Origin: a virus
Lineage: Duplodnaviria; Heunggongvirae; Uroviricota; Caudoviricetes
Length of the DNA: 5,281 nucleotides
Direction: 5' to 3' (one strand)
Virus record (IMG/VR): IMGVR_UViG_2663763286_000020
Span: 1 to 5,281 of that record
The position numbers and the translations under genes were made by a program. Every line of letters begins with the position of its first letter. Position 1 is the first letter of the stretch. The notes under the pieces are model-generated. The model saw nothing but the letters and a program-made list of their open reading frames with translations. It had not been told where the DNA came from and searched no databases. Below are positions 840 to 5,281 of the stretch, one piece after another.

Positions 840-1691
840 TTATTGCGCGCTTTCGGGGTTGTCGTTTACTGGCTGCCCCTTCTTGGTTTTACGGCTGCGC
901 GTAACTGATGCGGCTGATTTGACCTTTTTCTCTTCGCGAGTGATGGCAATTTGTTTTTTTACATTTTCAATATCTGCCAGGCGATATATTTTTGCCTGCG
1001 GCCAGCGGTCGCAGATGATCGGTTCTATAGAGTCATAAAGGCTAAATTTTGCTTTCTCGAATTCACCGTTGATGATGATTCCATCACGGAGAGTTTCATC
1101 GCAGATAAACACACCACACAGCGGCACATGGTAACTAACTGATTTACCATCATTGTAGTTAGGGCTACTAGAAATGTAATGGACGCGCAGCATTGTTTCG
1201 CTAAAGCCGTGTACGCGCATACGGAATTTTTCATCCTCCGGGTACTGCTTCATTAGCTCTTTTGTTGCTTCCAGGTTCTCTATGTATTTCGCACTGTGCT
1301 CATTGATCCCCGCGCTTTTTTGGATGCGAATGTCCTTATCAATCAGATGAATAATGCGGCCAGCGGTCATGTTGACGCTGTTCACAGCTTCTGTCTGATA
1401 AGTTGTAACCTTACGCACACCGCGAAGGGTGTTAGGCACTGGATATAAAATAGTCTTTGGGATATTGAGGTCTGGGTACTGTTCCAGTTCCCGCGCCATT
1501 AAAGTCCATTTATCAATTTCAGCCTGAATGCTGTCAGTTTCTTTGAACGGTAGAACGACAACCGGGCGTACAGGACGACCGTCGCTGGCTGTATCAACGT
1601 GTTGGGCGCGTGCAACAGCTTTTTTTAGAAAGAGATCCCTGAAGCTGACGAACTCCTGGTACAGTTGTTCGCCGTAGACATAATTTATCAT
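840..1691 (-). CDS. c1: C1 immunity repressor of phage P1 type.
   Basis: 283-aa product MINYVYGEQLYQEFVSFRDLFLKK... matches recalled P1 C1 in length and sequence. ATG at 1689-1691 (complement) is preceded by a strong SD GGAGGAGG with 4-nt spacing; stop TAA at 840-842 (complement). Confidence 0.95.
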   Translation of the reverse strand: MINYVYGEQLYQEFVSFRDLFLKKAVARAQHVDTASDGRPVRPVVVLPFKETDSIQAEIDKWTLMARELEQYPDLNIPKTILYPVPNTLRGVRKVTTYQTEAVNSVNMTAGRIIHLIDKDIRIQKSAGINEHSAKYIENLEATKELMKQYPEDEKFRMRVHGFSETMLRVHYISSSPNYNDGKSVSYHVPLCGVFICDETLRDGIIINGEFEKAKFSLYDSIEPIICDRWPQAKIYRLADIENVKKQIAITREEKKVKSAASVTRSRKTKKGQPVNDNPESAQ

Positions 1692-1713
1692 TGATCCTCC
1701 TCCAGAATTGACA

Positions 1714-1756
1714 TGGCCAACAACTCACAGCGGATTACACTGGGAGTTGTTGGCCA
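1714..1756 (-). repeat. Perfect 13-bp inverted repeat with 17-nt spacer in the c1 leader, about 23 nt upstream of the c1 start.
   Basis: TGGCCAACAACTC (1714-1726) pairs with GAGTTGTTGGCCA (1744-1756). Not followed by a U-tract on either strand, so not a classic terminator. Function unknown. Confidence 0.6.
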
Positions 1757-1758
1757 CC

Positions 1759-1802
1759 ATTATAGAAGGATCCAACGAAAATAATAGATTTATTAGTGCA
1801 TT
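1759..1802 (-). promoter_or_regulatory. Candidate c1-proximal promoter with a C1 operator-like site at the -35 position.
   Basis: A perfect TATAAT on the minus strand (complement of 1759-1764). 22 bp upstream, at 1786-1802, the minus-strand sequence AATGCACTAATAAATCT matches 14/17 of the P1 C1 operator consensus ATTGCTCTAATAAATTT. The site overlaps the coi stop codon. Confidence 0.45.
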
Positions 1803-2011
1803 TATTGTGAGTCTGGCTGGTTAGTGGCCATGAGATATTCGATTGTGTCAGTGAGATCATCCAGGTCGTCTTGGGTGATGCGGTACTCCTGATTGGATAT
1901 CTTTGAGTAGTGTTCAGCAATGGCGCGGGCAGCGTCGGTTTCGGCGGGGTCTACAGATAAAGCGTTAGAGCAATGTCTAACGTCGTCGATGGTTGGTGGA
2001 ATGAAAGCCAT
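1802..2011 (-). CDS. coi: Coi-like C1 inactivator, a small acidic protein co-oriented with and upstream of c1.
   Basis: 69-aa ORF MAFIPPTIDDVRHCSNALSVDPAETDAARAIAEHYSK... in the position and of the size of P1 coi. ATG at 2009-2011 (complement). Assigned by synteny and size; the sequence was not verified against a database. Confidence 0.8.
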   Translation of the reverse strand: MAFIPPTIDDVRHCSNALSVDPAETDAARAIAEHYSKISNQEYRITQDDLDDLTDTIEYLMATNQPDSQ

Positions 2012-2245
2012 AATTATGCCTCACTGTATTGACAACACAGAGCCTGAAGCTCTGACCTACTGTTTCACCCATGATCCATGCTGGGGTAATCTAACAACAT
2101 TGCGCTGTGTGTAAGATGAGCAATGCATAGCTGTAATGCCGTTGTATAAGGTTTCCCTGTTTGCTCATTTCCTTCTGAGCCGCTCTACAACGCTGAAGAC
2201 ACATTAAATAGTGAATCCAAAGTCGTATTACGAAACGGCGGCAAA

Positions 2246-2272
2246 ACTATAATTTATTAGAGCAATTGTCAA
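2246..2272 (-). promoter_or_regulatory. Minus-strand promoter for the coi-c1 operon with an overlapping C1 operator (the P99a/Op99a-type arrangement of P1).
   Basis: On the minus strand, a -35 TTGACA (complement of 2267-2272) is followed directly by ATTGCTCTAATAAATTA (complement of 2250-2266), a 16/17 match to the C1 operator consensus. A -10-like TATAGT (complement of 2246-2251) follows with 15-nt spacing. Confidence 0.65.
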
Positions 2273-2844: not shown

Positions 2845-3876
2845 ATGTCCAATTTACTGACCGTACACCAAAATTTGCCTGCATTACCGGTCGATGCAAC
2901 GAGTGATGAGGTTCGCAAGAACCTGATGGACATGTTCAGGGATCGCCAGGCGTTTTCTGAGCATACCTGGAAAATGCTTCTGTCCGTTTGCCGGTCGTGG
3001 GCGGCATGGTGCAAGTTGAATAACCGGAAGTGGTTTCCCGCAGAACCTGAAGATGTTCGCGATTATCTTCTATATCTTCAGGCGCGCGGTCTGGCAGTGA
3101 AAACTATCCAGCAACATTTGGGCCAGCTAAATATGCTTCATCGTCGGTCCGGTCTGCCACGACCAAGTGACAGCAATGCTGTTTCACTGGTCATGCGACG
3201 GATCCGAAAAGAAAACGTTGATGCCGGTGAGCGTGCAAAACAGGCGCTGGCGTTCGAACGCACTGATTTCGACCAGGTTCGTTCACTCATGGAAAATAGC
3301 GATCGCTGCCAGGATATACGTAATCTGGCATTTCTGGGGATTGCTTATAACACCCTGTTACGTATAGCCGAAATTTCCAGGATCAGGGTTAAAGATATCT
3401 CACGTACTGACGGTGGGAGAATGTTAATCCATATTGGCAGAACGAAAACGCTGGTTAGCACCGCTGGTGTAGAGAAGGCACTTAGCCTGGGGGTAACTAA
3501 ACTGGTTGAGCGATGGATTTCTGTCTCTGGTGTAGCTGATGATCCGAATAACTACCTGTTTTGCCGCGTCAGAAAAAATGGTGTTGCCGCGCCATCATCC
3601 ACCAGCCAGCTATCAACTCGCGCCCTGGAAGGGATTTTTGAAGCAACTCACCGATTGATTTACGGGGCAAAAGATGACTCTGGTCAGCGATACCTGGCCT
3701 GGTCTGGACATAGTGCCCGTGTCGGTGCCGCGCGAGATATGGCCCGCGCCGGAGTTTCAATACCGGAGATCATGCAAGCTGGTGGCTGGACCAACGTAAA
3801 TATTGTCATGAACTACATTCGTAACCTGGATAGTGAAACAGGGGCAATGGTGCGCCTGCTGGAAGATGGCGATTAG
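2845..3876 (+). CDS. cre: Cre tyrosine site-specific recombinase (P1 type).
   Basis: 343-aa product MSNLLTVHQNLPALPVDATSDEVRKNLMDMFRDRQAFSEHTWKMLL...GWTNVNIVMNYIRNLDSETGAMVRLLEDGD recognised as P1 Cre. Its cognate loxP lies 418 bp upstream. Confidence 0.98.
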   Translation: MSNLLTVHQNLPALPVDATSDEVRKNLMDMFRDRQAFSEHTWKMLLSVCRSWAAWCKLNNRKWFPAEPEDVRDYLLYLQARGLAVKTIQQHLGQLNMLHRRSGLPRPSDSNAVSLVMRRIRKENVDAGERAKQALAFERTDFDQVRSLMENSDRCQDIRNLAFLGIAYNTLLRIAEISRIRVKDISRTDGGRMLIHIGRTKTLVSTAGVEKALSLGVTKLVERWISVSGVADDPNNYLFCRVRKNGVAAPSSTSQLSTRALEGIFEATHRLIYGAKDDSGQRYLAWSGHSARVGAARDMARAGVSIPEIMQAGGWTNVNIVMNYIRNLDSETGAMVRLLEDGD

Positions 3877-3893
3877 CCATTAACGCGTAAATT

Positions 3894-3910
3894 ATTGCTC
3901 TAATTCATTG
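3894..3910 (+). promoter_or_regulatory. C1 operator-like site between cre and the downstream small ORF (position of P1 Op2-type operators).
   Basis: ATTGCTCTAATTCATTG matches 14/17 of the consensus, with the first 11 positions perfect. Confidence 0.45.
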
Positions 3911-3926
3911 ATATTTATGGTGACAT

Positions 3927-4238
3927 ATGAGAAAGGATTTCAACATCGACGGAAAATATGTAGTGCTGTCTGTAAGCACTAATATTCAGTCGCCAGCCGT
4001 CATTGTCACTGTAAAGCTGAGCGATAGAATGCCTGATATTGACTCAATATCCGTTGCGTTCCCTGTCAAAAGTATGCGTGGTGCTGAACATTTCGTGATT
4101 AACGCCTCCGAGGAAGAAGCACGGCGCGGTTTTGCTAAAGTGATGTCTGAGTTTGGCGAATTTTTGTGGCACGTTGACAAAGCCCTCTCAATCAGTTCAG
4201 CAAGGTCCAAAGCGTTAACAGCTTCCATGATGAAATAA
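3927..4238 (+). CDS. Hypothetical 103-aa protein downstream of cre, in the position occupied by cra in P1. The sequence itself is not recognised.
   Basis: ATG 3927 with a weak SD (GGTGA, short spacing). Residue composition looks protein-like (..SEEEARRGFAKVMSEFGEFLWHVDKALS..). An operator-like site lies 17 bp upstream. Preferred over the overlapping minus-strand ORF 3986-4318, which contains a terminator hairpin. Confidence 0.5.
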   Translation: MRKDFNIDGKYVVLSVSTNIQSPAVIVTVKLSDRMPDIDSISVAFPVKSMRGAEHFVINASEEEARRGFAKVMSEFGEFLWHVDKALSISSARSKALTASMMK

Positions 4239-4262
4239 AAAAGCCTGGCAAGGAGCCAGGCT
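4233..4262 (-). terminator. Intrinsic terminator oriented for minus-strand transcripts.
   Basis: Hairpin AGCCTGG-caaggag-CCAGGCT (4242-4262). On the minus strand it is followed by TTTTTATTT (plus-strand A-tract 4233-4241). On the plus strand it sits 3 nt after the 4236-4238 stop codon but has no downstream T-tract. Confidence 0.6.
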
Positions 4263-4368
4263 GCACAAAAGAGCGGGTTTGTATTCCGCATACAATCAAT
4301 CAAGAAGGAGTATAGCACACAGGTACTGAAGAGAAAAAATGTGATTCGCGATAAATAAAATAGCCACT

Positions 4369-4412
4369 ATTGCTATAATTAATTGTTATAATTGAGTTGT
4401 GGCTTTAGTCAA
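4369..4412 (-). promoter_or_regulatory. Promoter island with a C1 operator-like site: minus-strand promoter TTGACT-16-TATAAC, plus two plus-strand TATAAT boxes.
   Basis: Minus strand: -35 TTGACT (complement of 4407-4412), 16-nt spacer, -10 TATAAC (complement of 4385-4390). ATTGCTATAATTAATTG (4369-4385) matches 14/17 of the operator consensus and overlaps the -10 and predicted start. Plus-strand TATAAT at 4374-4379 and 4387-4392. Confidence 0.45.
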
Positions 4413-4451
4413 CTACGAAGACATTGCCATTATAGACTCCGTGACATCATT

Positions 4452-4475
4452 GGCGGCCGAAAGGCCGCCTTTTTT
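4452..4475 (+). terminator. Rho-independent terminator for plus-strand transcripts, at the inner edge of the right inverted-repeat arm.
   Basis: GGCGGCC-gaaa-GGCCGCC, a perfect 7-bp GC stem with a GNRA-type tetraloop, followed by six T (4470-4475). It lies 2 nt from the stop codon of the convergent minus-strand gene. Confidence 0.8.
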
Positions 4476-4477
4476 AA

Positions 4478-5029
4478 TCATTCAGCCGCCACCGGTTTTA
4501 ACAAGCCAGCATCGAGCAGTTTACGCGTCAACCACTGTTGGCCTTTCCCCGTTAATTGAGGCGTCAGCCGTATCTGATAGCCATCTTCATCATCCAGCAC
4601 CACTTCTTTCACTGTGAAATATCCGGCGTTTATGTACTGCTGAAACGGTACATTTTTACGTCCGCCGGACGCAATCAGGATGCCGTTCTCCCGTAACCAG
4701 GCAAACAGCGCATTTTGCTTAAGTCCAACAACCTTTGCAAAATTCCCAATCAGGATCCCCTTAGCCACTGATACCCGGTCGGCAAAATCGACCTTAGGGG
4801 CGGCGGCCACCAGCTGCTGATTTAGCTGGTGGGCTTTCTGTTCCAGAAGTTGCTTTTGTTCAGCCAGCTCGGCAGCCAGGCGCAGAGCTTCGGGAAGCGT
4901 CTGAGGGATTGCGACCGGTTGCTGTTCTTTTTGCCGGAAGTAGCTGTCTTCCAGTTTTTCAAAGAATGCCCATGCCTGATCGGTTTCGATCATTTTAGCG
5001 TGGCGGGCTGCGCCGCGTTCCGTCCAGAG
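4478..5029. repeat. Right arm of the long inverted repeat (partner of about 256-807).
   Basis: Reverse complement of 4741-5050 aligns colinearly with 241-540 at high identity (see left arm). Boundary is approximate. Confidence 0.8.
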
Positions 5030-5281
5030 AGTGAGGTTTCTGGCGTTCTTACCAACAGAGTTACTAAAAGTAACTCTGTTCTTAAATTCCTTTAATTTTG
5101 AACCAGTTAAAAGAAAGTAGTGTTTACCTTCTTCAAAGCGATCGGAGTTGCAAGACAAATTTTTACGAATATTGCCTTCATCGGTTCCGTACCCCTTAGC
5201 AAGAGTTTCGGTTGTTACGACACGTACTCCCTGCCATTCCAGAACGGGAATTTCATCAGACTGATTCTGAACAACCACCAT
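4478..5281 (-). CDS. Antirepressor-family protein, right paralog (ORF6N/KilA-N-like N-terminus plus KilAC-like C-terminus), inverted relative to the left copy.
   Basis: 267-aa ORF starting with ATG at 5279-5281 (complement), exactly at the window edge, with stop TGA at 4478-4480 (complement). The C-terminal ~180 residues differ from the left copy at only 2 positions. N-terminal motifs RFEEGKHYFLLTGSKLKEFKN and LWTERGAARHAKMI are typical of this domain family. Confidence 0.85.
   Translation of the reverse strand: MVVVQNQSDEIPVLEWQGVRVVTTETLAKGYGTDEGNIRKNLSCNSDRFEEGKHYFLLTGSKLKEFKNRVTFSNSVGKNARNLTLWTERGAARHAKMIETDQAWAFFEKLEDSYFRQKEQQPVAIPQTLPEALRLAAELAEQKQLLEQKAHQLNQQLVAAAPKVDFADRVSVAKGILIGNFAKVVGLKQNALFAWLRENGILIASGGRKNVPFQQYINAGYFTVKEVVLDDEDGYQIRLTPQLTGKGQQWLTRKLLDAGLLKPVAAE

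Follow-up and report, generated by a model that had tools for sequence, protein, structure and literature searches.

The inverted repeat that lies directly upstream of the repressor gene c1 in P1-type phages is best read, from comparison of related leaders, as a selected RNA structure on the c1-sense strand, in which selection acts on the pairing and not on the sequence. The hairpin that it forms is very probably a functional element that acts at the RNA level on c1 expression. The repeat was found in a 5,281-base stretch of DNA, referred to here in its full length as the window, which is a phage P1-type immC/lox/cre region. Positions 1600-2100 of the window are 100% identical to positions 93991-94491 of P1 (NC_005856), and the positions of promoters and operators were transferred through this identity from the P1 RefSeq annotation. 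The features of the region, in window coordinates, are as follows.

840-1691, minus strand: c1, the primary repressor of lytic functions, 283 aa (P1 annotation, PF27008)
1689-1691, minus strand: ATG start codon of c1
1695-1703, minus strand: Shine-Dalgarno sequence of c1, GGAGGAGGA
1693-1703, minus strand: Shine-Dalgarno region of c1, GGAGGAGGAUC, the predicted partner of the upstream AUCCUYY block (RNAalifold, folding energies)
1713-1757, minus strand: stem-loop of the c1 leader, on the c1-sense RNA (folding; conserved with covariation)
1759-1764, minus strand: -10 hexamer TATAAT of Pc1 (former P99a; sigma-70), transferred from P1 RefSeq and invariant where C1 is at least 71% identical
1765-1772, minus strand: conserved block GAUCCUUC, consensus AUCCUYY, abutting the -10 hexamer on its 5' side (alignment, RNAalifold)
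1783-1788, minus strand: -35 hexamer of Pc1 (P1 annotation)
1775-1802, no strand assigned: Oc1ab, the bivalent C1 operator (former Op99a,b), overlapping Pc1 (P1 annotation; operator match at 1786-1802)
1802-2011, minus strand: coi, the C1 inactivator, which ends 30 nt upstream of the AUCCUYY block
about 2243-2272, minus strand: P1coi promoter (former P99d) with operator Oc1d (transferred from the P1 annotation, locus coordinate + 99; operator match at 2250-2266)
2393-2426: loxP
2616-2837: cra
2845-3876, plus strand: cre

P1coi is the source of a read-through imcA-imcB-coi-c1 transcript. C1 is produced from both P1coi and Pc1, and Coi is produced from P1coi alone (PMC8546580). Between the -10 hexamer of Pc1 and the start codon of c1, no feature is annotated in the P1 record, which lists 535 features, or in the P7 record.

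The two arms of the repeat, TGGCCAACAACTC (1714-1726) and GAGTTGTTGGCCA (1744-1756), are complementary at 13 of 13 positions across a 17-nt gap, as a sequence-only reading of the window had first noticed, and they can be extended to 17-nt arms (1714-1730 and 1740-1756) with one mismatch and a 9-nt gap. The window harbors two perfect 13-bp inverted repeats with a loop of 3-40 nt, this one and loxP; no such repeat appeared in 1000 shuffled windows, and the analytic expectation is 0.003. The minus-strand TATAAT that had been pointed out at 1759-1764 is there, the reverse complement reading TATAAT, and it is the annotated -10 hexamer of Pc1. The distance to the c1 Shine-Dalgarno sequence, then put at about 23 nt, needs correction: the hairpin ends 10 nt before the Shine-Dalgarno sequence and 22 nt before the ATG.

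On the c1-sense RNA the repeat folds into a hairpin of 14 + 5 pairs, which agrees with the stem-loop that had been proposed for the c1 mRNA leader. The outer stem comprises 14 pairs between 1744-1757 and 1713-1726 (from G1757.U1713 to C1744-G1726) and is separated by a 1x1 mismatch of C1743 and U1727 from an inner stem of 5 pairs (1738-1742 with 1728-1732), which carries the loop UAAUC (1733-1737). The predicted energy of the hairpin is about -33 kcal/mol, and the surrounding 91 nt of c1-sense RNA fold at -38.8 kcal/mol (z = -6.2). A scan of the whole window with the Rfam 15 covariance models gave nothing at 1713-1757, its two weak and unrelated matches being located at 4235-4484. We searched P1-like phage genomes for a second copy or a trans partner of the hairpin, and the self-match alone was returned on both strands. 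A stem-loop in the c1 leader is not mentioned in the searchable full-text literature; this does not include the founding papers on P1 immC, in which an early mention of dyad symmetry is possible. The hairpin is new to the P1 and P7 annotations and to Rfam; in kind it is a leader stem-loop, which is a familiar class.

We compared the c1 upstream regions of 140 loci, which came from annotated phages and plasmids, from IMG/VR, from metagenomes, and from contigs with a gene for a more distant C1. Among lineages whose C1 is 71-100% identical to that of the window, the operator, the TATAAT, the Shine-Dalgarno sequence and the start codon are almost invariant. Between the -10 hexamer and the Shine-Dalgarno sequence, each lineage has a sequence of its own. 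We observed at least eight types of arms, unrelated in sequence, which form equivalent hairpins in the same position with respect to the -10 hexamer and the Shine-Dalgarno sequence.

P1: 5' arm GGCCAACAACUC, 3' arm GAGUUGUUGGCC
RCS47: 5' arm GGUCAGUAAUG, 3' arm CGUUAUUGACC
JK004 and Klebsiella: 5' arm ACAUUCCCCG, 3' arm CGGGGGAUGU
Salmonella types: 5' arm CACACCCCC or UGCACCCCC, 3' arm GGGGGUGUG
L125: 5' arm ACACCCUCC, 3' arm GGGGGGUGU
L131: 5' arm AUAUGGCAGUA, 3' arm UACUGCCAUAU
L133: 5' arm AGCGCACAUCC, 3' arm GGAUGUGCGCU
L135: 5' arm AACGCACACCC, 3' arm GGGUGUGCGUU

Folded singly, the leader of each lineage gives a two-tier hairpin of -22 to -38 kcal/mol directly past the -10 hexamer. The covariance model found no match in L126-L129, whose C1 is 53-58% identical and whose upstream layout differs. 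Scanning of GTDB genomes returned near-identical loci only, and tblastn with the protein P0012 against plasmids returned no intermediates. The C1 homologue of a Citrobacter plasmid (L011, 25% identity) was left out as not comparable. In the gene calls of L133 and L134, the start of the c1 homologue is placed 63 nt too far upstream, giving a protein of 304 aa; this miscalled start is located inside the leader hairpin, right after the TATAAT, and the conserved ATGGTCAACTAT start lies downstream of it.

Covariation was scored on a sequence-only MAFFT alignment of 17 distinct leaders, from which RNAalifold recovers the hairpin. When the P1 structure is imposed on this alignment, 84% of the cells are paired, versus 43-51% when the partners are slid by 1-3 columns, and double-sided changes are present in 11 of the 19 hairpin pairs. 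The covariation score is 0.378, compared with at most 0.156 for the slid structures, and none of 500 shuffles reaches it; an Infernal alignment gives 0.438 against at most 0.147. The stems of L131, L133 and L135 are offset by 2 nt and were scored as unpaired, and Infernal did not re-register them, so that the pair counts from both alignments understate the pairing; for these three lineages the per-sequence folds are the better evidence. Pairwise comparisons display the same pattern at closer range. The P1 and RCS47 hairpins are related by three double compensatory changes and two G.U wobbles, and the L133 and L135 hairpins differ at 4 of 43 bases, which are exactly two compensatory pairs. Conservation and covariation of the arms in related phages had been named as the check on the stem-loop; the pairing is kept, with abundant compensatory change, in at least eight lineages.

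The same comparisons bear on a second role that had been offered for the repeat, that of a binding site for a dimeric protein. As a DNA palindrome it would be such a site, or a cruciform, at the start of Pc1 and would control initiation. The perfect 13-bp arms do overlap the expected Pc1 start, and in the Salmonella types and L131 the antisense strand folds about as stably as the sense strand. However, the sense fold is the more stable in six of nine lineages (-26.5 versus -13.5 kcal/mol in RCS47), and in several lineages the pairing is kept by G.U wobbles alone, which would be mismatched both in DNA and in the fold of the opposite strand. The P1-type and RCS47-type hairpins differ at 19 of 42 bases, and their 13-nt arms at 7 of 13 positions, although their C1 proteins share 99% identity; the remaining lineages of the sample have yet other sequences. 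Arms of 13 bp set 17 nt apart are also unlike usual dimer sites. We searched the window for the asymmetric 17-bp C1 operator (ATTGCTCTAATAAATTT, up to 3 mismatches), and none of the five matches overlaps 1713-1757. Different arms despite 99% identical C1, the lack of an operator match and the strandedness of the fold together argue for an RNA structure and against a protein-binding palindrome, and we regard control at the level of DNA as very unlikely. The five operator matches, where 0.05 would be expected by chance, are located at 1786-1802 and 2250-2266 on the minus strand and at 2333-2349, 3894-3910 and 4369-4385 on the plus strand; two of them lie downstream of cre and c8, adjoining the right-hand antirepressor gene.

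The difference between the P1-type and RCS47-type (L004) hairpins forms an island that is bounded exactly by the -10 hexamer and the end of the 3' arm. The flanks of the two types differ at 10 of 360 bases upstream and at 7 of 450 bases downstream (about 2%), and the synonymous divergence of c1 and coi is 0.09, which the hairpin exceeds five-fold (P ~2e-9). By contrast, the L133 and L135 hairpins, with their four differences, accompany c1 genes that differ at 0.56 of synonymous sites. No donor of the island was found among the other sampled lineages. The excess divergence could have arisen by exchange of a cassette, by template switching at a quasi-palindrome, or through selection for diversity that involves a sequence-specific partner. 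Such divergence is unusual for a constrained element, and it would be compatible with a palindrome that has no function and persists through quasi-palindrome template-switch repair. That explanation is extremely improbable in view of the similar-sized hairpin at the same place in at least eight lineages, including pairs of lineages whose c1 synonymous sites are near saturation (pS 0.56-0.75), and of the compensatory nature of the few changes between L133 and L135.

The repeat had been placed at the 5' end of the c1 leader. A leader stem-loop is indeed present, but its stem begins 2-4 nt past the -10 hexamer in every lineage, before the expected start of Pc1 transcription. Transcription by sigma-70 polymerase normally starts 7-8 nt past the -10 hexamer. 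The first 3-5 pairs would thus be absent from Pc1 RNA, which would carry a truncated stem only, and the complete hairpin should be able to form only in the P1coi read-through RNA, with the Pc1 start placed from the position of its -10 hexamer. These first pairs covary or wobble: a C-G pair of P1 is U-A in RCS47, a G-C pair of L133 is A-U in L135, and between L009 and L010 an A-U pair becomes G.U and a C-G pair becomes U.G. Since the first pairs are maintained and compensated, selection appears to act on an RNA that contains them, which is the P1coi read-through transcript.

With assumed starts 6-8 nt past the -10 hexamer, the truncated stem has a predicted energy of -13 to -23 kcal/mol and would, in almost every lineage, be preceded by 0-2 unpaired nucleotides; the hairpin is followed by an A/U-rich single-stranded spacer and a strong Shine-Dalgarno sequence. 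This arrangement is what one would expect of a 5'-terminal stem-loop that serves as a stabilizer only, capping the Pc1 transcript and slowing its 5'-end-dependent decay by RppH and RNase E, so that steady amounts of C1 are made from a weak, autorepressed promoter; the AUCCUYY block would then be unrelated to it. We consider this explanation unlikely: the first 3-5 pairs lie upstream of any likely start and are nevertheless maintained and covarying, and the invariant ATCC block 5' of the -10 hexamer is left unexplained.

The full duplex should exist only in the read-through RNA, where a processing site would make sense, and RNase III cleavage in the coi-c1 RNA could separate coi from c1 and alter stability or free the ribosome-binding site of c1. 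A substrate of RNase III would usually be a nearly uninterrupted duplex of some two turns (20 bp or more). The P1 hairpin, with 14 + 5 pairs and a single mismatch (19-20 pairs), and that of the variant L064, with 20 perfect pairs, speak for such a site. The stems of other lineages have 15-19 pairs and are shorter or interrupted, with bulges of 4-5 nt in the Salmonella types, which puts them at or below the usual substrate length, and we hold processing by RNase III to be decidedly unlikely.

The sequence-only reading had set aside a classic terminator for want of a U-tract, and rightly so: the tail of the hairpin is UGUCAAUUCUGG, and a terminator scan of 1500-2500 did not call it. A strong GC-containing hairpin between coi and c1 might all the same act as a terminator or attenuator that stops P1coi transcripts past coi, so that c1 would be expressed from Pc1 only, and L135, one of eight lineages, does have a U-rich tail (UUUAGUUUUUU). 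The hairpins of P1, RCS47, L131 and L133 have no U-tract, no terminator is annotated at the site in P1 or P7, and in the published model c1 is transcribed from P1coi too (PMC8546580), all of which makes attenuation highly improbable. The only terminator-like match of the scan, at 1982-1963, is a hairpin on the minus strand within coi; it contains the core of Oc1c, ATTGCTCTAA, and probably arises incidentally from the operator sequence.

All eight lineage types with C1 at least 71% identical have, immediately 5' of the Pc1 -10 hexamer, an invariant ATCC with pyrimidines after it. The five bases that precede ATCC vary freely, which leaves ATCC invariant within an otherwise variable stretch of 12 nt. 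The same bases are present at the same position in L003, L009, L010, L125, L131, L133 and L135. The block lies outside the annotated operator and corresponds to no known sigma-70 element. It is complementary to the Shine-Dalgarno region, in P1 as GAUCCUUC (1765-1772) with GGAGGAUC (1693-1700) and in L131 as UCCUUUUA with UAAAAGGA, and, lying 5' of the -10 hexamer, it would be present only in RNA started upstream of Pc1. A possible role of the block and the Shine-Dalgarno sequence as Dam sites was considered and rejected, as their GATC is not conserved in the Salmonella or L135 lineages.

Folding predictions connect the block with the Shine-Dalgarno sequence. RNAalifold, unprompted, closes the hairpin with UCCUUC:GGAGGA, and the helix between block and Shine-Dalgarno sequence is part of the minimum free energy structure of the long RNA in nine of nine lineages. 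The Shine-Dalgarno sequence has a predicted probability of 0.38-0.59 of being unpaired in the short RNA and of only 0.04-0.23 in the long RNA, and the predicted energy needed to open the stretch from the Shine-Dalgarno sequence to the AUG is 4.0-6.1 kcal/mol in the former versus 9.2-12.9 kcal/mol in the latter. Blocking the 9 nt before the -10 hexamer brings the opening energy back to 5.2-7.0 kcal/mol in 7 of 10 sequences.

The controls on this predicted fold-back are only moderate. The block is the best partner of the Shine-Dalgarno sequence within 400 nt upstream in three of nine lineages and ranks in the top 10% in the rest. When the 112 nt upstream of the presumed start are shuffled, opening energies are still 5.7-8.6 kcal/mol; the native value is above all or nearly all shuffles in four of nine lineages, and in the remaining five 5-17 of 60 shuffles exceed it. 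Shuffling just the 12 nt before the -10 hexamer is an uninformative control, because the shuffles retain the CCU composition. In L010 and L133, the role of the block is taken over by different pyrimidine tracts further upstream, and in a few rare natural variants that carry GATCAC (L007, L061, L109) the predicted effect is abolished. The helix itself is almost invariant and therefore offers no covariation test, and the conservation of the block could instead serve the promoter spacer or the binding of C1 or Lxc.

Taken with the position of the stem, these predictions suggest that the c1 leader folds differently depending on the promoter from which it originates. In imcA-imcB-coi-c1 transcripts from P1coi, the whole hairpin and the AUCCUYY block would be present, the hairpin would juxtapose the block and the c1 Shine-Dalgarno sequence, and the two would pair. 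This pairing would hold c1 translation down, and the P1coi RNA would yield mainly Coi. Transcripts from Pc1 would begin inside the 5' arm and lack the anti-Shine-Dalgarno block, leaving the Shine-Dalgarno sequence open; their remaining 8-10 + 5 pairs would give a stem-loop that starts right at the 5' end and that should also shield the Pc1 mRNA from 5'-end-dependent decay. We infer the Pc1 start site, the pairing and all effects on translation and stability, the pairing being a thermodynamic prediction. Promoter-dependent fold-back repression of c1 translation, combined with a 5'-terminal hairpin on Pc1 transcripts, is accordingly offered as a tentative model, to which we give somewhat less than an even chance. 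The 45-nt hairpin is not needed for the fold-back itself, so that it may have a separate primary role.

A further-reaching possibility joins this model to the divergent island. Within the lysis-lysogeny switch of P1, the hairpin might be the hinge of a riboregulator that senses the promoter of origin, with P1coi RNA translationally silent for c1 and giving Coi only and Pc1 RNA giving C1. At the same time, the excess divergence between the P1 and RCS47 hairpins might stem from diversifying selection instead of drift, with a partner such as a nuclease, an RNA or a competing phage that recognizes the sequence. That both hold together is rather unlikely. If the riboregulator were real, the same DNA would encode a pro-lytic and a pro-lysogenic message.

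The predicted behavior is reminiscent of the transposase genes of IS10/Tn10 and IS50/Tn5, whose read-through mRNAs are reportedly subject to fold-back inhibition, as described by Davis, Simons and Kleckner in 1985 and by Schulz and Reznikoff in 1991. In IS10 and IS50, the complement of the ribosome-binding site is located shortly before the start of the gene's own transcript, and only the longer RNA folds back on the Shine-Dalgarno sequence; the transposase genes are thereby protected from outside transcription and their own transcript remains translatable. The AUCCUYY block, located directly 5' of the Pc1 -10 hexamer and predicted to pair with the c1 Shine-Dalgarno sequence, would share this layout. 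Unlike in IS10 and IS50, the partners in P1 are about 60 nt apart and are joined by a large, independently conserved hairpin, and the upstream RNA is not fortuitous but a programmed operon transcript that encodes Coi, the inhibitor of the repressor; the fold-back here is a prediction.

The leader of ompA is said to carry a 5'-terminal stabilizing stem-loop, reported by Emory, Bouvet and Belasco in 1992. The c1 stem-loop would resemble it in lying 0-2 nt from the predicted 5' end, under the assumed start, and in being followed by an A/U-rich spacer and a strong Shine-Dalgarno sequence; it differs in that the c1 stem runs several pairs upstream of the expected start and that those pairs appear to be under selection. 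Lambda int is retroregulated by sib, an RNase III site that is located 3' of the gene and is dependent on antitermination. Both systems would have one gene with two promoters and different expression, as only the longer RNA forms the duplex, whereas the c1 element is a structure in the 5' leader, with no implicated nuclease. Within the immunity circuitry of P1, RNA-level control is represented by c4 of immI, a trans-acting processed antisense RNA that targets ant (Citron & Schuster 1992, as cited in PMC8546580); the c1 leader hairpin differs from it in being a cis structure in immC. If the model proves true, an RNA layer would be added to immC, beside the c4 antisense RNA of immI.

Phage-plasmids related to P1, a classical model phage, are very common in E. 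coli, Salmonella and Klebsiella, and this locus is present on over 700 plasmids of PLSDB. Quantitative models of P1 lysis-lysogeny assume equal c1 expression from P1coi and Pc1 RNA and subtract coi from c1 mRNA counts (PMC8546580). Were c1 translation or stability to depend on the promoter, the reading of coi and c1 mRNA counts would change. The element is small and well delimited and has natural variant alleles, and the simple refinement of the C1/Coi decision model that it suggests is directly testable with reporter fusions.

Other features of the window and of the more distant loci were observed. The region about 100 nt upstream of c1 in L126-L129 contains a palindromic operator, CTCTAAAAAA..TTTTTTAGAG, and lacks a large hairpin. 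In these lineages the Shine-Dalgarno sequence pairs, through a short stem (AUGCUC/GAGCAU or UGCUC/GAGCA), with bases just past a TACTAT -10-like hexamer, and this stem may be a simpler form of the same promoter-dependent masking. Between loxP and cra lies an 18-nt inverted repeat (2524-2541 and 2567-2584, 89% complementary, 25-nt gap) that may be another leader structure. The whole c1-coi-lox-cre module is flanked by two antirepressor genes in inverted orientation, at 4-807 on the plus strand and 4478-5281 on the minus strand, each encoding a 267-aa ORF6N + ANT/KilAC protein; in P1 itself, pacB adjoins c1. The repeat arms (250-818 and 4467-5035) are 569 nt long and 95% identical, whereas the N-terminal parts of the two antirepressors are only 77% identical. 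Inversion of the immunity/lox/cre segment could result from homologous recombination between the arms. In PLSDB, 242 plasmids match 80% or more of the window in a single place; the best of these matches are mostly from E. albertii, with one from E. coli, and both antirepressor genes are present in them.
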